From positions 1-61,481 of the IMG/VR virus record IMGVR_UViG_3300040781_000188: DNA of 61,481 bases. One strand, 5' to 3'. Shown in pieces: positions 25,955-57,411 of the stretch. Made by a program: the position numbers and the translations under genes. Every line of letters begins with the position of its first letter. The stretch's first letter is position 1. The DNA is from a virus (taxonomy: Duplodnaviria > Caudoviricetes). The notes under the pieces are model-generated. The model saw nothing but the letters and a program-made list of their open reading frames with translations, was not told where the DNA came from and did no database searches.

Positions 25955-28900
25955 GTGCAAAAAAATGTTTGTAGGATATTATTGGTTATATTATTATTAA
26001 TAATACCAACACTTTCTAATGCTAATTTTAAACTTAGAGTTGGCGTTTACGAAAATTATCCAGTTATTTTTATGGATGGTGATACACCGAAAGGTTTATT
26101 CATTGATATATTAGAGCATGTTGCTAAGGGTGAAGGTTGGACTCTTGAATATGTTAAATGTGATAGCTGGATAGAGTGTTTCCAAAAAGTAAGATTTGGT
26201 GGTATTGATATTCATGTAGGTGTCGCGTATTCAATTGAAAGAGACGATTATTTAGATTATAATAAAGAATCAATTCTTACATATTGGACAACAATATATC
26301 AGAGACCTTTAGGTGGAATCAACAATATTTTAGATTTGGATGGTAAAACTGTCGCTGTTATGGAAGGTGATTATAATGCTGAAGAATTTATAAATTTAAC
26401 TGAAGAATTCGACATTAATTGTGAGTATGTATGGGTAAAACAACCAATAGAAGTTTTTGATAAATTAGTGAATAATGAAGTTTCTGCGGCTATTATAAAT
26501 AGTATTAGTGGTATGGTTAATAGTGTCGATTATGATGTAAGACAGACATCTATTGTATTTAATCCTTTTGGATCTTTTTTTGTAACACGAGAAGGTAAAT
26601 TCCCTTTAGTGTTACAAGCTATTGATGATCATATTAAAATTGAAAAGAAAGATAAATTGTCATATTATCATTCTCGATTAAATTATTGGATTTCCAAAAT
26701 TAATCCAAGTTATAAAATTGACTTGATATTTATTTATTTATTTTGTGGAGCATTAGGTTTAGTTTTTATATTTTTATATTTTAAAGAAAAGGAAACTAAA
26801 GCTCCAATTAGAATAAGTTTAGTATATTTAATTATAGGAACTATTTGGATTGTTGTTAGTGATAATCTTATGTTTGGGATCACTGATCCAGAAAATTACA
26901 GGCAGTTTCAAACGTTAAAAGGTATATTGTATGTTATATTAACTACATGTCTAATATTTGTTCTTATTAGACATAGTATTCAAAGAATAAGAGATAATGA
27001 AACGAGATATAGTAAAGTAATACAGACTGTTCCACATGGAATGTTAGAACTAGATAAATATGGTGTGATTAAGTTAGCGAACACTACATTTTTTGAAATG
27101 ATTGGATATGGTAATGGTGAATTAATAGGTCAGAAAGTTCAAAGTTTTGTTGATTCTAAATCTATTAAAGATATTAATGAAATGCTTGGTAGTATACGTC
27201 AAGGTTATCCTAATAAAAACACTAATTGGTTTGGTAAAGCGGTAACTAAACGTGGAAGGACTATTGATATTGAGGTAAATTGGAGTTATTTGTATGGAGA
27301 TGATCATATATCTGGTATAGTTGCTGTTGTTACCGACAACACAGAAAAGAATAAAATTCAGATTAGATCTCAAGTAGCTAATGAGATATTAAATTTACTT
27401 AACAGAACTATCGAAATAGATGAAACTATACAGCAGTGTTTAGATTTATTAAAAGATAAACTTTTTATATCTGCTGTCGCTGTGAGATTGACTAAAGATG
27501 GAGATTACCCGTATTTTAAATCTCAGGGGTTCGATGAAGTTTTCACAGAAAAAGAAAAGTGCCTTTTAGCAGTGAAAGAAGTAATTTGTGTTGATCCACA
27601 TGATGAAGACTGTGAACATGTTTTAGATTGTCTTTGTGGTTGTGTTATTGAATACGATGAAGAAATATCTCCTACTCATTTCACAGAAAAGGGATCTTTT
27701 TGGTCGAATAATCTTTGTCAATTCTTCCAGAATTTGTCTATTGAAGATAAAGAACGATATCATATAAGAGGTTCTTGCGAAGTTGCAGGTTTTAAATCTA
27801 TTTGTCTTATTCCTCTTCGTTTTGGGAATAGAACAATTGGTTTGTTACAATTAAATGACAGACGCGTAGGTGTATTTACTAAAGATGTTATTAATTTCTT
27901 TGAAGGAATTGCTGATAGTTTAGGTATAGCTTTATATCGAAAAGTAACAGAATTAGAATTAACGAAAAGTGAACGTACTCTAAATGCTATATTTAATGCG
28001 GCTCCTATTGGTATGGGTATAATTAATAACAGGATTTTTGGAGTAACAAATAAGCATCTTCATAAAATGATAGGTCGTGGGCCAGAAGAACTTTTTGGTA
28101 AAAGTGCAAGAATACTTTATCCTACTCAAGAAGAATATGAAAGAGTTGGTCGAGAAAAACATCCTCAAGTCGAAAAATATGGTATAGGATGGGTCGAAAC
28201 CAAATTCAAACATAAAGACGGTACAATTAAGGATATTATTCTTAGTTCTTCAAGTATTGGTGAAGATGGTGAAATGGTTTTTACTAGTGTTGATATAACA
28301 GAACGTAAAAATGCTGAAGAAAAGATTATAAGAAGTGAAGTGAAGTATAGAGGATTATTTGAAAACATGTTAGATGGTTTCGCTTTACATGAAATAATAG
28401 TTAATGGTCACGGGGTACCTATTGATTATAGATATTTAACTGTTAATCCTGCATTTGAAAGAATAACAGGGTTTAAAAAAGATTATGTTGAAGGAAAAAC
28501 TGTTAAAACTGTGTTACCTAAAATAGAGGATCATTGGATTCAAAGATTTGGTAATGTTGCTTTAACAGGGGAATCTGATAATTTCGAAGAAGAAGTTATG
28601 AGTATGGATAATAGAGTTTTTGAGGTAACAGCATATAGCCCTAAAACAAATCAATTTGCGGTTTTATTTCAAGACATAACTGATCGTAAAAGGGCAGAAA
28701 ACGATCTAAAAGAGAAAAATGATCAATTTGATAAGTTAATATCAGGGTTATTTGATGGGTTTGTTAGAGTGTCATTAGACAGAATTGTTATTTCTGCTAA
28801 TCGTGCTTTTTGTGAAATGATTGGTTACACTGAAGATGAATTAAAAGCTATTACATTTGAGAATTTTACACATCCTGATGATTGGGTGTGGGAGAAACCT

Positions 28901-30283
28901 ATTGTTGAAAAATTAGTAAATGGCGAGCAAATACCCCCTTATGAAAAAAGATATATCCATAAAGATGGGAGTGTTATAGATATTGAACTTGCTCCTTATC
29001 CTATTTCTGATGATTCTGGTAATGTTGTTGAATTATGGGGTATTGCAAAGAATTTAACGCCAGTTAGAAATGTTCAATTAGAAATAATAGAAAAAGAAAA
29101 ACAATTACGTCGGGCTTCTAAAATGGAAGCTGTTGGTACTTTAGCTGGTGGATTAGCTCATGACTTTAATAATATTATTCAAATAGTAAGTGGTAATGTT
29201 CAATTAATGCGTATGGATTTGGATTCTGACGGAAAAACTTCTGATTGGAGTAAAATGTTAAATGATATGTTAGAAGCTTCTGAGAGAGGAGCTGCTATTG
29301 CAAAACGTCTTTTAACTTTTAGTCGTCAAGTCGAAAGCCATCTTGTACCAATTGATATCAATGATGAAATTATTATTGCTCATAAATTATTAGACAGAAC
29401 TGCAACGTGGCCGGTTTTAGTTAATATTAAATTAGATCTTGATGAAGATATTTGTTTAATTTTAGCGGACTCTACACAGATTAATCAGATCGTTACAAAT
29501 CTATGTATTAATGCTAAAGATGCAATGCCTTCTGGTGGATCAATAACAATTAAAACTAGAGTTGCAGAATTAGATGAATTATATTGTCGTTCTCAACCTG
29601 AAGCTGTCCCGGGAAGATACGTTTGTATGGTAGTTGCTGATGATGGTATAGGTATGAAAGCTTCTATTCTTGAAAGAATATTTGAACCATTTTTCACAAC
29701 TAAAAGTACAGGAAAAGGAACAGGATTAGGTTTAGCTGTTGTTTATGGTATTGTTAAAAATCATAATGGTTTTATAACTGTATATAGCGAAGAAAATATC
29801 GGAACGGAGTTCAAAGTGTATGTGCCATGTACAGATCAAACTCTTAGAGAAAATAATAGTTCTTCTGTTTGTGATTTATCTCAAGGTAATAAAGAATTAA
29901 TACTTATTGTAGATGATGAGTCTAGTATACGGTTTATTCTTAAAGATATATTAAGAAGGTATAATTTTAAAGTTCTCGAAGCTAATAATGGAACTACTTG
30001 TTTAGATTTATATAGTAAATATATGGATAAAATAGAACTTGTTATTTTAGATCTAGTTATGCCTGGAATAAGCGGAACAGAAACATTAAAAGAAATTTTA
30101 AAGATTAATCCTGATGCTAAAGTTATTATTTCTAGTGGGTATTCGTCTAATGGTCCAGTTAAAGATTCAATTGAAAATGGAGCATATTCTTTTATAAATA
30201 AACCATATACATTAAATAATCTTATTAGTGTCATTAAGAGAGTTCTTAGTGGCAAAAGAGATGGAGTAGATGAGATATGTTAA
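25955..30283 (+). CDS. Membrane hybrid histidine kinase (periplasmic solute-binding domain, TM helices, PAS, GAF, 3 PAS, HisKA, HATPase, REC)
   Basis: [60 protein letters not shown]. Confidence 0.95.
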
Positions 30284-48631: not shown

Positions 48632-48817
48632 ATGTTATCTATATCTAGATTATTTGAAGAAATATCATCATTTCCGCTTTCAAGGAAACTACAGAAAACC
48701 GCATCTAAATTATATATGCGTGGTACCCCAGAATATAACACTATTGCTCAAAGAATTGCGGAAAAGGCTAAAACAGTTTCTCCAAAATATCAAGCAATGA
48801 AAAGGAAGCTTTCGTAA
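48632..48817 (+). CDS. Small basic tagged protein (MLSISRLFEE)
   Basis: SD GAGGG; tag motif. Confidence 0.7.
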   Translation: MLSISRLFEEISSFPLSRKLQKTASKLYMRGTPEYNTIAQRIAEKAKTVSPKYQAMKRKLS

Positions 48818-49176
48818 TGCTATACACATACAAAGCCAAATATTTATCTAATTATGATGGGGACACTATCGACTTCTTAGTTGATTTAGGTTTTGGTATT
48901 TCTTATAAAATAAGAGTAAGGTTATTAGGGGTTAATACTCTAGAAATAAGATCTAAGATTGAAGAAGAAAGAGTTAAGGCAAGATTAGCAAGAGATGTTG
49001 TAAAAATTGAATTGTCTAATGCTGAAGAAATTATAATCAAAACAAAAAAAGATAAGACCGGCAAATATGGTCGATATTTGGCCGATATATTATATAAGCG
49101 CGATAAAATGGCAGAGATGCCAACTAGTTTGGCTCAATTACTTTTAGAACGAGAATTAGCTGTTCCGTATGAATAA
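48817..49176 (+). CDS. Thermonuclease (SNase-like)
   Basis: YDGDTI, VRLLGVNTLE, GKYGRYLA. Confidence 0.9.
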   Translation: MLYTYKAKYLSNYDGDTIDFLVDLGFGISYKIRVRLLGVNTLEIRSKIEEERVKARLARDVVKIELSNAEEIIIKTKKDKTGKYGRYLADILYKRDKMAEMPTSLAQLLLERELAVPYE

Positions 49177-49537
49177 AGAAAGACTTGCTATGATAACTGT
49201 CGAAAGAAGAAAACACAATAGAATTAAAACACCTAAAATTTCATTTGCTGCTATTACCGGTAAAGAACTTTCTATGATAGTAAATAAGAAAGTTGTATTT
49301 GGTAGAGTGTACGATATAGATCCTGATGGGTTATGTGTAACATCTGATACGTTATTACCCGAGGGTAAAAATATTGAATTAATATTAAGACTATTTAAAA
49401 AAGATGTGAAATTTAATGGTAATATTATTCGAGCTAATAAAGAACACGACACTACATTTCTGGCGTTTCTATTTAATTGGAAAAATACACCAGAACAGAG
49501 TAAAGAATTTCTTCAAAAATTCTTAGAGACTATATGA
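49169..49537 (+). CDS. PilZ domain protein 7
   Basis: ERRKHNR plus variant DIDPDG, GNIIR. Confidence 0.75.
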   Translation: MNKERLAMITVERRKHNRIKTPKISFAAITGKELSMIVNKKVVFGRVYDIDPDGLCVTSDTLLPEGKNIELILRLFKKDVKFNGNIIRANKEHDTTFLAFLFNWKNTPEQSKEFLQKFLETI

Positions 49538-49544
49538 GGATAAA

Positions 49545-50075
49545 ATGTTATCATTACTAAAACTATTTGAACTACAAGATTTACCTTGGAGATACAAACG
49601 TGGTGGCAGAGTACCTTTTGGTGCAGATAAAGTTAACGCTGCTATGTTTGCTTGGTTTGTTTTCCATGATGGAGAAAAACCTCCTTTTATACCAGGTAGA
49701 GTAGTTAATCATCCAGAGAAGAACTGGAAAGGTATGGGCGTAGATAAAGTTATACCTACTAAAGCTCTAGATGATTTATATGCTATTAAACAAATTCAAG
49801 GTAGAGCAAGTTGTCAAGGTACTCTTACGGATGCAAATGGTGAATTAGAAGTTCCTACTTACTATATATTTAGACCTCTTAATCAAGATAAACGATATGT
49901 TGAAACTATAGTAAACAAACTAAATAAATATTCAGATGTTAAATCTAATTACGATATAGGATTAGGTAATGAATTTCGTATAGGTGTTGTTGGGAATATG
50001 TCTTATGAAACTAATCCTAAAAGTTTTACTAAATGGTGGAATGAGTTACCAATTAAGATTAAGAAATCATTATAA
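49545..50075 (+). CDS. Tagged hypothetical protein (MLSLLKLFE)
   Basis: SD GAGGA; contains RASCQG. Confidence 0.7.
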   Translation: MLSLLKLFELQDLPWRYKRGGRVPFGADKVNAAMFAWFVFHDGEKPPFIPGRVVNHPEKNWKGMGVDKVIPTKALDDLYAIKQIQGRASCQGTLTDANGELEVPTYYIFRPLNQDKRYVETIVNKLNKYSDVKSNYDIGLGNEFRIGVVGNMSYETNPKSFTKWWNELPIKIKKSL

Positions 50076-50084
50076 ATAAAAATT

Positions 50085-50254
50085 ATCCTTCCCCATGGGT
50101 ATAGGGGAAGGTGTATCTAAAGTGTCGCCCAGACACTCTATTCCCTTTGGTCGCTATCCTGGATTTTGTCCATGTCGCGGGATAGTTTTTGCCGAGAAAG
50201 TACGAATCTTTCGATTCGAATGGACACCTAAGGGACAAGGTGTCTTACTCCCCG
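50085..50254 (-). ncRNA. Candidate structured non-coding RNA of unknown class
   Basis: Five hairpins including a GAAA tetraloop on the minus strand, terminal hairpin, promoter-like motif directly upstream. Confidence 0.6.
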
Positions 50255-50262
50255 TTAATATA

Positions 50263-50291
50263 ATTTCTATATATCTAAAGAGAATATAAAA
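50263..50291 (-). promoter_or_regulatory. Conserved promoter-like motif, copy 2
   Basis: ATTTCTATATA-N9-AATATAAAA, 2 mismatches to the consensus. Confidence 0.55.
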
Positions 50292-50824
50292 TGATATCTA
50301 TATCTCAACTTTTAGAACAAGAAAATCAAGTCCAAATCTATTGTGATATGGATGGAGTGCTTACGGATTTTAACGAGTCTGCTAAAAAGATTGGATGGAA
50401 AGGTCCACTTCCAGCGGTTACAAAAGAGGATAAATCAGCACTCTGGAAAATGGTAGTAGGAAATGCCGAAAAATTTTGGGGCGATATGCCTTGGAAAGAA
50501 GACGGTAAAATACTTTGGGAATTCATTAAGCCATATGATCCTATACTTTTGACATCTGTCGCTAATAGTCTAAGTTCAAAGTTGGGCTCAGGCGGAAAAC
50601 GTGGAAAAGAACGTTGGGTTGGGAGAGAGTTAGGTCGGGATTATGTCAAAAACAATCTGATCGTTGTAGCTTCGCATGGAAAAACTAAATATGCAAAGAA
50701 GGGTTCTATTTTAATCGACGATTTTGAAAAAAATATAATTCCTTGGGAATCTGCTGGTGGGATTGGTATTTTACATACGTCAGCTGATAGAACTATAGAT
50801 GAGTTAAAGAAACTATTGCAATAA
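50291..50824 (+). CDS. Tagged (MISISQLLE) HAD-family 5'(3')-deoxyribonucleotidase-like phosphatase
   Basis: IYCDMDGVL, ILLTS, K, ILIDD motifs. Confidence 0.88.
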   Translation: MISISQLLEQENQVQIYCDMDGVLTDFNESAKKIGWKGPLPAVTKEDKSALWKMVVGNAEKFWGDMPWKEDGKILWEFIKPYDPILLTSVANSLSSKLGSGGKRGKERWVGRELGRDYVKNNLIVVASHGKTKYAKKGSILIDDFEKNIIPWESAGGIGILHTSADRTIDELKKLLQ

Positions 50825-50844
50825 AAAAGACGGGTTACGTCTTT
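50822..50844 (-). terminator. Terminator between convergent genes
   Basis: AAAGACG GGTTA CGTCTTT with A-tract on the left. Confidence 0.55.
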
Positions 50845-51065
50845 CCTCCATAAACGGGGCATTCGCCTTCGTCATATGGGTTCATCTCTACGGCCTCGCG
50901 AATAATGTACTCCGCAACGCTTTCGAGGGCTATGCGGATACTACTCACTGGAATCTCTTCCAGGTTCTTCTCCGCATAGGTTAAGGTTACTGGGAAAGCT
51001 ATTCCCAGTACTCGGACGAGCTCATAAAGCTCATCCTGCCCCAGGCCTTCCAGCTGTTTGATCAT
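50835..51065 (-). CDS. Small hypothetical protein (MIKQLEGLG...); minus strand, ORF-track label is wrong
   Basis: Reverse complement reads AAGGAGGCCCAT ATG ATC AAA CAG. Confidence 0.75.
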   Translation of the reverse strand: MIKQLEGLGQDELYELVRVLGIAFPVTLTYAEKNLEEIPVSSIRIALESVAEYIIREAVEMNPYDEGECPVYGGKT

Positions 51066-51110
51066 ATGGGCCTCCTTTGTTGTGGTTTGAGGTGCATTCG
51101 CCTTCGTCAT
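50859..51110. repeat. 17-bp direct repeat pair
   Basis: GCATTCGCCTTCGTCAT at 50859-50875 and 51094-51110. Confidence 0.9.
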
Positions 51111-51273
51111 GGGTTTATTTTTACAAACTTTTTGTTCGTTTTATCTTATGATATTTCTTGTGCATAATCGAACAATTACGCACTCCCAAGCACCCTCATA
51201 AGTAGGGTCCGCGCCAGCACCACAATGGTGACTGGAATTAGGAATCTCGCGGGCGCAGCTATAACGATTCGCT

Positions 51274-51654
51274 TTACCTTGCTAGAGCAAGGCATCCGAC
51301 GATACTACCGTCGGACTTACGAACCATCCTTGCAACGGTCAACAGATCGGTTCTACCCGTCTGTCGAGCAGCGTTGGCAGTGATAGCTGAGACGATGTAG
51401 AATACACCTTTTTCAGGTGCAGGGAGATTTTCAACCTCCCCATATTCCAACCCAATAGTTGGAATATTTTCTATCGCCTCTGCATCTACCTCGACTACTG
51501 AGCAACGTGGAACGTTGCCCGAGGTTGCAGGGATCTCGCAAACGACGACAGGGTCGCCCACGAGGTTATAACTCCGAGTACGTTTGTTGTACTCGGCACA
51601 CACTGGCGACAGAATTGTCACCGCATGTGGCGTCATATTGATGACGCTGGTCAT
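51274..51654 (-). CDS. Conserved phage hypothetical protein (NxTPH...LPAP...YIVS...RxDL...G.IVGC family); minus strand, ORF-track label is wrong
   Basis: Reverse complement reads AAGGAGAAAGGGTT ATG ACC AGC GTC. Confidence 0.8.
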   Translation of the reverse strand: MTSVINMTPHAVTILSPVCAEYNKRTRSYNLVGDPVVVCEIPATSGNVPRCSVVEVDAEAIENIPTIGLEYGEVENLPAPEKGVFYIVSAITANAARQTGRTDLLTVARMVRKSDGSIVGCLALAR

Positions 51655-51743: not shown

Positions 51744-51762
51744 GATAAAGCCCCGAAGGGCT
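51744..51762 (-). terminator. UUCG-tetraloop terminator-like hairpin
   Basis: Minus strand AGCCC TTCG GGGCT TTAT right after the stop of 51761..52243. Confidence 0.7.
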
Positions 51763-52243
51763 ACTCCTTAAATTCGTTAATAATGACTGTTTTACATTTC
51801 TCTAGATATGCTATAACCCCATCAATCACTATATCTTCATCTTCATCGTGTTCTTCTAAATGTTTATGTATCATATCTAGCAGATATATATGCAGAAACA
51901 TATTATTATAAAAAGGTTTAAGATCATTGAAGTGGTTAGCATAATCAGATACATCGTGTGTTAACTTAAATTTTCCTTCCTTATCATAACCAACAAATTG
52001 ATTAGGTAATGCATACATCAATGTATCATCTGAATCTATAATAGTGGCGAATTTATCGAATACAAAAGCTCTACCCATCATTTTTGTTATGTCACTATCT
52101 AGGTGATCATCTAGAGTTCTTATCATTTCTTCCATTAATTCTTCACTGAACTCATCAATTAGTCTTTGCGATAAATAAAGTTCTAACCGGTCTGTGAAAA
52201 CTTTAATAAGTGATTTTTTCATTACCTCTAACCATTCAGCCAT
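51761..52243 (-). CDS. Hypothetical protein
   Basis: 160-aa acidic ORF, SD AAGGA. Confidence 0.75.
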   Translation of the reverse strand: MAEWLEVMKKSLIKVFTDRLELYLSQRLIDEFSEELMEEMIRTLDDHLDSDITKMMGRAFVFDKFATIIDSDDTLMYALPNQFVGYDKEGKFKLTHDVSDYANHFNDLKPFYNNMFLHIYLLDMIHKHLEEHDEDEDIVIDGVIAYLEKCKTVIINEFKE

Positions 52244-52273
52244 TTTAATCCTTTCATCTTTTTTTGATAGAGA

Positions 52274-52663
52274 TTAATAATAGACATATATGTGAGTCGA
52301 ATTAGCAGTTTCCAAAACTCTATTTAATTCTCTTTCCCATGTTTTTGCATCAAGATTACTGGGTAATTCTGTTATTGTTGCTCCAAGAAATATTCTTAAT
52401 TTACAAGATAAATTTGGATGTATTAATGTGCCGTCTTTACGTTTATCACAAATTGGTATTATTTCTAAATTTATATCTGATGTGTAATATTCTTTATTGT
52501 GATGTATTAGAATTGATTTTGGTTCATCTTTGATTACATTAATCATATGCCCTAATATCTCACCATTAAATAGAACATCCCAATTACTTCGATTTATTCT
52601 TGGCATTTGTTTAATTAAAGATTTGGTCATTCGACGTTTCATTGTTACGATTTCAATTTCCAT
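52274..52663 (-). CDS. Hypothetical protein
   Basis: SD GGAG before ATG 52663. Confidence 0.7.
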   Translation of the reverse strand: MEIEIVTMKRRMTKSLIKQMPRINRSNWDVLFNGEILGHMINVIKDEPKSILIHHNKEYYTSDINLEIIPICDKRKDGTLIHPNLSCKLRIFLGATITELPSNLDAKTWERELNRVLETANSTHIYVYY

Positions 52664-52700
52664 TTTTGTCTCCATAATAAAAGTTAATGTTAGAAGAATC

Positions 52701-52729
52701 ATTTCTTTATATAATTGTTAAATATTAAA
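52701..52729 (-). promoter_or_regulatory. Conserved promoter-like motif, copy 4
   Basis: ATTTCTTTATA-N9-AATATTAAA(GGATAAA). Confidence 0.65.
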
Positions 52730-54511: not shown

Positions 54512-55270
54512 ATGAGTAATAATTTGGTTATTGATCCTATAATTCATAATTTACCAGTTGCTATATTAGTTGTTGATAAAGAGCGAAAAGTAATGTTGTC
54601 TAATAAAGCTGCTGAGTTCCTTGCAAATAAATCAGAGTCACAATTATTTGATTTATATGGCGGACAAGCTTTAGGCTGTATTCATGCAGATTCTGAAGAA
54701 GGTTGTGGATTTACAGAACATTGTGATGCTTGTGATGTTAAAAATGCAGTTTTAGAAACATTCTTATCAAAGAAAGATAGAGAGTCGTTTGATACAAAAA
54801 TTAATTTAAAATTATACGGGTCTAGAGATATAAAAGTATCTGCAACATATTTAAATTTAGATGAAATTAGAGATGAAATTGTTAGTGTTGAAAGAAGAAT
54901 AAGTCGTGGTAGAAGAGAGAGTGATTTGCGTAAAGAAATGGTTATAGTTGCTATGGAAGATGTGACTGAGTTTAAAAAGAAAGAACGAATGTCTGCAACA
55001 TTAGAAACTGTTGGTGCATTATGTCATGAAATGAATCAACCATTGCAAGTTCTAGAAGGATCTCTTTCTCTTATTAAACTTGATTTGGATAGTCCGAAAG
55101 ATAAAAATAAAGAAATAAATGAAAATCTTAAAATTGCATATGAAGCACAAGTTAAATTAGCTAAAATTATATCGGATCTTAAACAATTAAAAGAATACGA
55201 AACGAAACAATATTTATCTGGTCGAATATTAGATATTGAAAAATCTGCAAATAGTGGTGAATTGTCATGA
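54512..55270 (+). CDS. PAS plus HisKA-only (no ATPase domain) signalling protein
   Basis: PAS start LPVAILVVD...SNKAA, Cys cluster GCIH...GCG.TEHC..C, H-box ALCHEMNQPL; no HATPase motifs. Confidence 0.8.
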   Translation: MSNNLVIDPIIHNLPVAILVVDKERKVMLSNKAAEFLANKSESQLFDLYGGQALGCIHADSEEGCGFTEHCDACDVKNAVLETFLSKKDRESFDTKINLKLYGSRDIKVSATYLNLDEIRDEIVSVERRISRGRRESDLRKEMVIVAMEDVTEFKKKERMSATLETVGALCHEMNQPLQVLEGSLSLIKLDLDSPKDKNKEINENLKIAYEAQVKLAKIISDLKQLKEYETKQYLSGRILDIEKSANSGELS

Positions 55271-55286
55271 AGAAAATGAGGAACTA

Positions 55287-57411
55287 ATGTTTCAAAGATC
55301 TGCATCTATAAGCAAGATGGTAAGGGCGAAAAAAATTAATCAAGTTTCTCCCGCTGAGAAAAAACGCAGAGCTTTAGAAATATGGAAGTGCAGAACTAAT
55401 CCTTTCTATTTTATTCATAATTATTGTTTTCTTGATGAAGGTGGAGGTCAAACTCTTTATAAGAAAGAGTTAATGCATAATAAAATGCGAAGAGTTGTTA
55501 GATCAATTTTTCGTTATAAAAAATGCATATTGATGGCTTCTCGTCAGTTAGGAAAATCTACTATTGCTGCTTGTTTAGTTGCATGGTCTATGGTATTTTT
55601 TCCGAGAAATAAAGCAGTCATATTGAACATGAAACAAGATGCTGGTAAACGGAATCTAAGAACAATTAAATTCATAATAAAGAATTTGCCGGTTTGGATG
55701 GTTTCAGAAAGACCATTCAAGAATAAGAGTGATGCGGTAACATATTGTGAATTGTTTAATGATAGTAGAATCGATTAATTATTAGTCGCCTCATACGGTA
55801 ACGTATGTTGAATAACTCTGTGAATTCAGGGGAAGCCTAAGTCATAACAGATATGGTAATCCTGAGCCAAGCTTGTGTCCGCTAACACAGGAAGGTGCAA
55901 CGACTATCCCGAGAGGGAGTACACTGGAAGCCCAGTGGAAGCGCAGAGCATCCTAGTTTAAAGATGGACTCTAGGATGATGATATAGTCTAGACTATATG
56001 GAAACATATAGCAGTCCACAAAAGGACGCCTAGAATTTAGCGAATTCTAGGGAATGAATCGGTATTCTACCCAGCAACGACCCATGACCCTTCAACATTA
56101 GCACGTTCTTTGACTGTTGCAGTATTGTATATTGACGAATCTGCTTTTATCAAGTATATGGATGAAATTTATGGTTCAGCACAACAAACATTATCTAAGG
56201 CAAGGGAGCAAGCTAAGAAGTACAATTATCCATACTTTATGTTGGTGACAAGTACTCCTAACGGTACTCAAGGTGATGGTGAGTGGTTTTATAATCGTTG
56301 GGGAAATGCTGTTGAATCTGATGAATTGTTTGTTCCTAATGACCATGGTCTTGAAGATTGGAATCCAGATATTGATATCGATGAAACAGTAAAAGATATG
56401 TCAAGAAATACTTTTATTCGTGTTAGATATCACTGGAGTGAAGATCCAACTAAAGATGAACAATGGTATTTGGAACAATGTCAGGAACTTGGGGATCAAC
56501 GTAAAGTTAACCAGGAACTTGATTTACTTTTTGTCGGTACAACACAATGTATTTTTGAGGATGAGACATTAGCTGCATTCGAAGCTAAAACTCCAGTCAC
56601 GACTTTACCCTGCCCACACCATTCTAAATTAGACATTTTTGTCAACGAATTAGATAAAAACGATTGGTACATTATTGGATGTGATACTGCACAATCCCTA
56701 ACAGGTGCATTTTGTGCTATTCAAATATATGGATTTAGAGAATTTAATCAAATTGCCGAACTAAGTAATAAGTACGGGTCGTACCATAATTTTGGTGAAG
56801 CCATTCATTATGTGTTCCAATGGCTTTATTCTCAAGTTGGTCCAAGAATTATTTTAGCAATAGAGAATAATACGATTGGACAAGCTCCAATTGAATATTT
56901 AACTAAAAGTGTTACGACATTTGATTATATGCCTTTCTTAGAAAGAGATGTTGATAAAACTGGAAATTTAAAGCATGAGTTAGGGATTAAGACAACCGGA
57001 TTAACAAAACCGTTAATGGTAGGATGTCTTGTTGAATGTATCAACGAAAATATATTAGGATTTAAATCTAGAAATTTAATTAATCAATTTGGGACTATTG
57101 AAAAAACAAATTCAGGAACTATTCGATCAAATTCAGTAACTGATTTATTTATGGCATCTTGTTTCTGTGCTTTTACAAGAAAACGTAGAGCTATGGAGAT
57201 TATGCCACAGATTCAATTTACAAATCAACAAATTCAAGTTCAAATATTAAAAACTGTTCAAACAGCAGCATCAATTGCTGGAACAAAAGACTATATTAAA
57301 TTCACAGAAAAGAAAGATGATATATCTCATATTGTTGGTATTGATGATGATTATAATTTTGAAAAAACAGATGATATAGATTCTGCATTTTTGCCATTTA
57401 TTAATATGTGA
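55287..57411 (+). CDS. terL: Terminase large subunit, two exons (55287-55775 and 56062-57411, 612 aa spliced)
   Basis: Walker A ASRQLGKS, Walker B VLYIDE, TSTPNG, QEL, nuclease IGCDTA; exons join in frame as DSRID-VFYP. Confidence 0.92.
55776..56061 (+). ncRNA. Group I self-splicing intron (286 nt, no ORF)
   Basis: P1 CGAT/GTCG with U-G at the splice site; P AATTCAGGGGAA, Q AATCCTGAGC, R GCAACGACTA, S GATATAGTC; terminal G 56061. Confidence 0.92.

Follow-up and report, generated by a model that had tools for sequence, protein, structure and literature searches.

A putative stand-alone gene for a structured non-coding RNA on the minus strand of a large uncultivated phage

The stretch of DNA analysed here (the window) is an IMG/VR virus record of 61,481 nt, estimated to be 22% complete, with a GC content of 33% (0.333). 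Its source is an uncultivated, AT-rich, large phage. The RNA element described below lies on the minus strand of a gap between two plus-strand genes, and the immediate surroundings comprise the following features.

48817-49537, plus strand: genes of a 119-aa staphylococcal-nuclease homologue and a 122-aa PilZ-domain protein, immediately ahead of the gene of the 176-aa protein
49545..50075, plus strand: gene of a 176-aa protein without known family, the upstream flank; stop codon at 50073-50075
50076-50290, between the two plus-strand genes: 215-nt gap that houses the RNA element on the minus strand
50083-50238, minus strand: 51-aa open reading frame, product not conserved
50095..50289, plus strand: 64-aa open reading frame, judged not to be a gene
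50291..50824, plus strand: gene of a 177-aa 5'-3' deoxyribonucleotidase (phrog_2643, E = 3.8e-28), the downstream flank

The genes upstream of the gap are ordered as the staphylococcal nuclease (SNase)-like gene, the PilZ gene, which is two genes away, and the 176-aa gene. PilZ domains usually bind c-di-GMP. An AlphaFold model of the 176-aa protein had a pLDDT of 67.5, and a Foldseek search against the PDB gave no match at E <= 0.001. Other genes of the window encode a UvsX-like recombinase and many proteins of unknown function. The large-terminase gene (55236-57411), whose N-terminal part matches terminase PHROGs, is interrupted by a group I intron at 55766-56011 (Rfam, 111.8 bits). The product of a plus-strand gene at 25955-30283 is a hybrid sensor histidine kinase of 1,442 aa; its domains are of the solute-binding, PAS, GAF, HisKA, HATPase and receiver types. 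Beyond the deoxyribonucleotidase gene, 50835-51654 (minus strand) forms an island of about 50% GC in the 33% GC genome and contains two minus-strand genes without assigned function. Together with 51761..52702, the island genes form a minus-strand block converging on the deoxyribonucleotidase gene, with stop codons 10 nt apart.

The element occupies 50076-50273 of the minus strand and consists of a promoter-like motif, TATATAGAAAT, followed by about 178 nt of folded RNA. It had originally been predicted, from the letters of the window, as a highly structured RNA that is GC-richer than its surroundings. Indeed, the GC content is 0.488 in 50085-50254 and 0.318 and 0.358 in the 500-nt flanks. The minus-strand fold (181 nt) has an energy of -57.6 kcal/mol (z = -3.28), and none of 200 shuffled sequences folded as well.

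The only diverged homologue found lies at 478-661 of the minus strand of a 1,340-nt metagenome contig (L011). It was reached by a search with the 176-aa protein, which gave three relatives; their alignment (A1) was used to scan metagenome contigs and yielded two loci. In L011, the homologue of the 176-aa protein shares 79% amino acid identity, and the element follows directly after its gene. At the second locus (L012, 38% amino acid identity), there is neither a gap after the homologous gene nor an element. A 61-aa gene lies between the element and the deoxyribonucleotidase gene in L011; therefore, the element is linked to the 3' end of the 176-aa gene and to the promoter/start cassette opposite it. 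The 680 nt upstream of the L011 element on the minus strand hold plus-strand genes only, so the element is not a 3' untranslated region.

In an alignment of 184 columns, the minus-strand cores of the two copies (window 50076-50256 and L011 478-661) differ by 24 substitutions and 3 indel columns, an identity of 85.3%. The DNA of the flanking gene is 83.2% identical, with 43 of the 80 differences at third codon positions, as is usual for coding sequence; thus, the spacer is no less conserved than coding DNA. The divergence of the element amounts to 14.7% of columns, compared with 27% (43/159) of the third codon positions of its neighbour. About 90 nt across the end of the 176-aa gene and the last hairpin of the element (P7) are 100% identical in both copies, and recent recombination instead of selection may explain some of the conservation. 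DNA runs also carry the element nearly unchanged, with 1 differing letter over 48971-50367 (X2 record 7) and none over 50154-50326 (X5 record 16). Because these copies are near-identical, they add no covariation. The single RNA run (X9) aligns with 51787-52648 and not with the element; it was kept as contigs, which do not show the ends, strand or level of a transcript, and thus speaks neither for nor against expression of the element.

All of the pairings listed in the original prediction were located in the minus-strand sequence. The structural parts of the element and their changes in L011 are as follows.

50193..50254, minus strand: 5' three-way junction P1-P2-P3, from single-sequence and consensus folds
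50254-50248 with 50199-50193, minus strand: P1, 7 bp; one change to G.U in L011
50244-50238 with 50229-50223, minus strand: P2, 7 bp, GACACC(U)/(A)GGUGUC, with an 8-nt loop (L2); one compensatory change and one to G.U
50230..50235, minus strand: 5' strand of the pseudoknot, UCCCUU in L2, pairing with AAGGGA
50218-50213 with 50208-50203, minus strand: P3, 6 bp, CGAAUC-GAAA-GAUUCG, with a GAAA tetraloop; two compensatory changes and one to G.U
50185-50180 with 50159-50154, minus strand: P4, 6 bp, CUAUCC/GGAUAG, with a 7-nt bulge (CGCGACA); one compensatory pair
50172-50169 with 50163-50160, minus strand: P4a, apical helix within P4, 4-5 bp, UGGA-CAAAA-UCCA; one compensatory pair
50142..50147, minus strand: 3' strand of the pseudoknot, AAGGGA in the P4-P6 linker, pairing with UCCCUU of L2
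50138-50132 with 50126-50120, minus strand: P6 hairpin, 7 bp, GAGUGUC/GACACUU, loop UGGGC; stem invariant, loop C>U in L011
50111-50104 with 50094-50087, minus strand: P7, 8 bp with a 9-nt loop, CCUUCCCC/GGGGAAGG, then AUAAUUUUUAUUU; the same in L011
50076..50111, minus strand: terminator-like region (P7 and U-tract), abutting the stop codon of the 176-aa gene

Every helix is retained in L011. Thirteen of the 24 substitutions fall in paired columns and no pair is broken, whereas 24 randomly placed substitutions break 7.1 +/- 2.0 pairs and leave all of them intact in only about 5e-5 of trials. Five pairs are changed on both sides in a compensatory manner (two in P3 and one each in P2, P4 and P4a), and three one-sided changes, one each in P1, P2 and P3, lead to G.U. 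A 2-nt insertion in L011 provides P4a with a fifth pair. Since the consensus structure had been derived from both sequences, the test was rerun with the fold of the window sequence only. L011 then breaks 2 of 51 pairs, both outermost in extended helices, against an expectation of 7.8 +/- 2.1 (P = 0.003). These figures come from a comparison of two distinct sequences that are about 85% identical, with 0-3 informative changes per helix; P6, P7 and six of the seven P1 pairs do not vary between the copies.

The pseudoknot adds a further double change. The L2 loop had been predicted to have two perfect 6-nt partners, and both are present in the window. AAGGGA covaries with the loop, from UCCCUU/AAGGGA in the window to UCCUUU/AAAGGA in L011, by compensatory C>U and G>A changes, which is the sixth double change. 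The other partner, GGACAA, is replaced by GGAGCAA in L011, where its pairing with L2 is lost. Because the AAGGGA pairing had been proposed before the homologue was known, its covariation is a genuine test, if a modest one; we estimate that it would be passed by chance with a probability of about 0.05. Once the pseudoknot is counted, all of the 102 cells are paired (100%) and six pairs are changed on both sides. As a control, the 3' partners were slid by 1-3 columns, which left 39-57% of cells paired and no double-changed pairs. The comparison thus gives strong support to a real structured RNA on the minus strand.

Two smaller sequence features were also compared. The pentamer GCGAC occurs three times in the window copy, as had been noticed. 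However, all three occurrences are altered in L011, to GCGAA, GCGGC and GUGAC, so the repeat looks like chance. The loop of P6, UGGG(C/U) at 50127-50131 (minus strand), is complementary to CCCA of the invariant 9-nt P7 loop at 50095-50103 (minus strand), and the C>U change in L011 would give a fifth pair between the two loops. A loop-loop contact between P6 and P7 is possible on this complementarity.

Both flanking genes are on the plus strand, and the structure might therefore belong to their polycistronic mRNA, either as the leader of the deoxyribonucleotidase gene or as an element for processing or stability. Most of the hairpins form on the plus strand too (z = -2.90), and four of the compensatory pairs count for either strand. 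Because the plus strand folds nearly as well, a single sequence cannot decide the strand. The homologue is more informative. When the shared helices are read on the plus strand, four pairs in the window and seven in L011 become A.C or C.A non-pairs; all three one-sided changes, which give G.U on the minus strand, would give A.C; and P1, with its three invariant G.U pairs, cannot form. These mismatches indicate that the RNA is a minus-strand one. The consensus energies are -61.55 (minus) and -48.4 (plus) kcal/mol for the 219-column alignments and -56.25 (minus) and -50.65 (plus) for the core, so that the minus strand is favoured by 6-13 kcal/mol overall. P3 ends in the GNRA loop GAAA when read on the minus strand and in UUUC when read on the plus strand. 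Beyond the last hairpin, the minus strand continues with AUAAUUUUUAUUU and the plus strand with UGUAUCUAAAG, and a U-run is thus found in the minus orientation only. An element of the plus-strand mRNA is quite improbable.

A protein-coding function of the gap is far less probable again, whether in the 64-aa plus-strand frame or in the 51-aa minus-strand frame. Both frames are open in both copies, the plus-strand one over 65 aa in L011. However, a 2-nt indel shifts the frame; the plus-strand products agree over residues 1-23 and the last few only, and their middle (about residues 24-56) is unrelated. The minus-strand products are alike over only 26 residues, of which 16 are identical. Since both frames are shifted between the copies, the region is not coding, and a conserved 64-aa product, which would have spoken against the RNA, is not found. 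The plus-strand frame also lacks a Shine-Dalgarno sequence, a search of its product against 5.8 billion proteins returned only the query itself, and there was no Pfam match.

The motif TATATAGAAAT had been recognised as promoter-like and shortly upstream of the RNA. Its pattern, TATAWAGAAAT, has six exact sites in the window against 0.71 expected, and none of 100 shuffles reached six. The sites are as follows.

20115, minus strand: divergent gap ahead of the other minus-strand block
38558, plus strand: 44 nt ahead of the plus-strand gene 38613
47560, minus strand: inside a plus-strand gene
50263..50273, minus strand: promoter-like motif TATATAGAAAT of the element, correctly oriented, ending 8 nt upstream of P1
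51714, minus strand: 59 nt ahead of the minus-strand gene 51274..51654
52701, minus strand: head of a minus-strand block; the open reading frame matches its family only from residue 14 on, and the true start may thus lie further downstream

L011 keeps the motif at 669-679 of the minus strand, 9 nt ahead of P1. A search with a 966-aa protein gave one IMG/VR relative (G001, 60% amino acid identity), which has nine motif sites compared with two for a reversed-pattern control. Eight of the nine are directed towards a gene or unit on the same strand that starts within about 130 nt; the ninth (L121) is ambiguous. From the enrichment, the retention in L011 and the consistent orientation in G001, we consider the motif to be a real, oriented, promoter-like signal of this phage group, positioned to drive the minus-strand RNA. 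It is unlike a sigma-70 promoter with standard spacing. A scan for the sigma-70 consensus showed no enrichment in the window (12 found, 19.5 expected), and a single 9-of-12 match at 50308-50281 (minus strand) does not discriminate. The plus-strand gene 50291 likewise has the motif 18-28 nt upstream of it, and the motif may have a role for this gene.

In G001, two motif copies stand about 90 nt apart at L005 1502-1611 (G001:C1:10781-10890). The segment between them forms two strong hairpins (-35 kcal/mol, z = -5.5), and a search of G001 with the RNA model R1 gave no match. The motif may thus drive a further short RNA unit here.

The predicted terminal hairpin is the 8-bp P7, with six G-C pairs, followed by AUAAUUUUUAUUU; it is identical in L011. 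P7 is absent from our terminator scan because its 9-nt loop is outside the 3-8 nt that the scan allows, and the terminator call comes from direct reading of the sequence. Downstream of P7, no credible minus-strand gene was found, in agreement with the original prediction.

The RNA also proved to be of an unrecognised class, as had been proposed. At the gathering threshold, the 4227 models of Rfam 15 matched the whole window only at the group I intron. With E-values up to 10, the element of the window and that of L011 gave chance hits of 9-22 bits, compared with thresholds of 32-100 bits. ARAGORN found no tRNA or tmRNA gene in the window. The c-di-GMP riboswitches GEMM-I and c-di-GMP-II (RF01051 and RF01786) were unmatched at E up to 10, and no minus-strand open reading frame lies downstream. 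Self-cleaving ribozymes (hammerhead, twister, twister-sister, pistol, hatchet and HDV-like) were likewise not among the Rfam matches at E up to 10. A phi29-type pRNA has no Rfam match either; the large-terminase gene of the phage contains an intron, and we take the phage to be far larger than phi29-like phages.

Further copies were sought widely. As DNA queries against the phage collection, 1601 nt that include the element remained without a match, and the 215-nt spacer was matched only by Staphylococcus phages, four times and over about 33 nt of its AT-rich end (E = 0.7). Neither the single flanking proteins nor the alignment A1 of the 176-aa protein led to a further homologue of the element in the viral contigs. 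Three pattern scans of the viral contigs gave no hit, one chance hit, which lay inside a gene of a GC-rich phage, and six hits, none matching R1. An 18-mer scan of genome contigs gave 19 hits against about 17 expected by chance, none of which matches R1 at the pattern site. At E up to 1, R1 had no match in 792 kb of sequence from 80 loci that surround deoxyribonucleotidase homologues; it also detected no second copy within the window and had no match in L012. G001 has homologues of both flanking genes, at other places and without a gap next to either, and the element is absent from both syntenic places, by BLAST, and by R1 over 109 kb. The absence from distant relatives that have flanking-gene homologues (G001 and L012) suggests that the element is dispensable and confined to a narrow lineage.

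The region is a mosaic among related phages. Contigs of run X10 match only a cassette of about 35 nt (50259-50298), which comprises the promoter motif, a ribosome site and the start codon, and they are unrelated on either side. At 52400-52481, runs X9 and X5 have 71 other letters in place of 80 nt. Six otherwise unrelated plus-strand genes of the window (6446, 48632, 49545, 50291, 53410 and 54084) share a nonapeptide start, M-[ILV]-[SP]-[ILVM]-[SLT]-x-[LIV]-[FLY]-E (e.g. MIPISYLFE), which also occurs in L011 at 697 and 879. The internal proteins of phage T4 carry a capsid-targeting sequence that is cleaved after L/I-x-E. By analogy, the nonapeptide-start proteins may be packaged into the head. 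The RNA element sits inside this cassette-like, variable set of genes.

In such surroundings, the element could have no function of its own: it could be a group of hairpins by which converging transcription is only terminated or insulated, or an undecayed remnant of foreign, GC-richer DNA. This would fit its absence from more distant relatives, the gene order that differs among the window, L011 and G001, the adjoining GC-rich island, and the complete identity of the P7 stretch, which may mean recent exchange. However, a decaying remnant would not hold 51 of 51 pairs through 13 stem substitutions, nor the pseudoknot pair, and the element has diverged less than the third codon positions of the neighbouring gene. 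For a terminator, one hairpin suffices, and no junction with a pseudoknot is needed. We regard an element without its own function as improbable.

The evidence of homologue, strand, motif, reading frames and Rfam together supports the original view of a stand-alone structured RNA on the minus strand. The best explanation, to which we assign a probability of roughly 0.7, is a stand-alone gene between the two plus-strand genes for a structured non-coding RNA of about 175-180 nt. As read from the DNA, transcription would start a few bases past TATATAGAAAT (50273-50263), at about 50254-50258, and would stop at the GC hairpin and U-run, with a 3' end at about 50076-50082. The RNA would fold into a three-way junction of P1, P2 and P3, the last with a GNRA loop; the pseudoknot would tie L2 to the linker after P4, and P4/P4a, P6 and the terminator hairpin would complete the fold. 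A decoy, a ribozyme or a ligand binder had originally been suggested. Such an RNA may act in trans through its three-dimensional structure by binding a protein or a small ligand, for example, by sequestering or recruiting a host or phage factor. This fold-dependent binding is the likeliest mode of action, at somewhat less than even odds. It is suggested by the retention of the helices and the pseudoknot, and not of a single-stranded seed, and by the fact that no coding sequence lies opposite the RNA; simple antisense pairing is less probable. Multi-helix junction and pseudoknot folds are typical of ligand- or protein-binding or catalytic RNAs.

The same parts could also be assembled into a riboswitch-like or protein-responsive transcription attenuator on the minus strand. 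With P1 and the pseudoknot formed through a bound ligand or protein, the P7 terminator would form and a short RNA would result. Otherwise, the 5' GGGGAG would pair with the 5' arm of P7 (CUUCCCC), and transcription would read through antisense into the converging genes of the 176-aa, PilZ and SNase-like proteins. P1 is weak, with G.U at three of its seven pairs in both copies, and the alternative GGGGAG:CUUCCC pairing has four G-C pairs. Before the 3' arm of P7 is made, the nascent window RNA reaches its energy minimum (-49.8 kcal/mol) in the antiterminator fold; for L011, this fold misses the minimum by 0.6 kcal/mol. Once the RNA is complete, the terminator fold is the more stable one by 5.6 to 7 kcal/mol. 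In general terms, a junction of three helices combined with a pseudoknot resembles an aptamer, and the PilZ-domain gene is close by. However, no minus-strand open reading frame lies downstream, so the only possible output of an attenuator is antisense transcription. GGGGAG and CUUCCCC are invariant in both copies, which leaves no covariation test of their pairing, and purine-rich and pyrimidine-rich tracts pair readily by chance. In addition, two hairpins (P4 and P6) stand between P1 and the terminator, and no known riboswitch model matches. We therefore consider an attenuator unlikely. Equally doubtful is the proposal that the element represents a new class of sensing RNA, with a junction-pseudoknot aptamer, a weak P1 competing with the antiterminator, and antisense transcription as its sole output. 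If this were true, a ligand or protein would choose between a short RNA and the antisense silencing of the converging cassette, which probably encodes packaged proteins.

To our knowledge, the non-coding RNAs of large, uncultivated phages are almost unknown. For the present element, the comparative support is clean, the strand is defined, and both a promoter and a terminator are likely. The promoter-like motif, which is common to the phage group, helps to read the transcription units of this group. Its narrow distribution and its two sequence variants limit its significance.

Aptamers of the c-di-GMP-I (GEMM-I) and SAM-I classes contain a three-way junction with a GNRA loop or a pseudoknot. 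The element resembles them in its P1-closed junction, its GNRA arm, its long-range tertiary pairing and a terminator arm able to pair with P1. It differs in having no match to an Rfam riboswitch at E up to 10 and no same-strand gene to control downstream. Listeria and Clostridium possess riboswitch-controlled antisense RNAs with known aptamer classes (B12 and SAM). If the element were an attenuator, its output would likewise be antisense transcription into converging genes, whereas the putative sensor would be of a new class and encoded by a phage.

Closer counterparts are found among phage RNAs. Thousands of candidate structured RNAs (csRNAs) have been predicted in IMG/VR phages, with reported lengths of 29-151 nt and a requirement for matches to at least three unique IMG/VR regions (PMC10690425). 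Like these csRNAs, the element is an intergenic, conserved, covarying structure in an uncultivated phage contig, and it appears to contain a Rho-independent terminator, as many of them do (PMC10690425). Unlike them, it is about 178 nt long, and no other copy was found in the viral-contig scans, the 80 deoxyribonucleotidase loci or G001, compared with the at least three regions specified there (PMC10690425). Non-coding RNAs have reportedly also been mapped in phage phiKZ (PMC8244752), an example of stand-alone phage small RNAs with a promoter and an intrinsic terminator of their own. The element shares with RNAs of this type a short non-coding unit with a promoter motif, no open reading frame and a U-run hairpin, but the evidence for it is comparative and not transcriptomic. 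Its junction and pseudoknot are more elaborate than a typical base-pairing small RNA, and it has no sequence or structure relation to any family in Rfam. We rate the element as an orphan family within a known kind, the small structured RNAs encoded by phages, one that can be made and tested directly.
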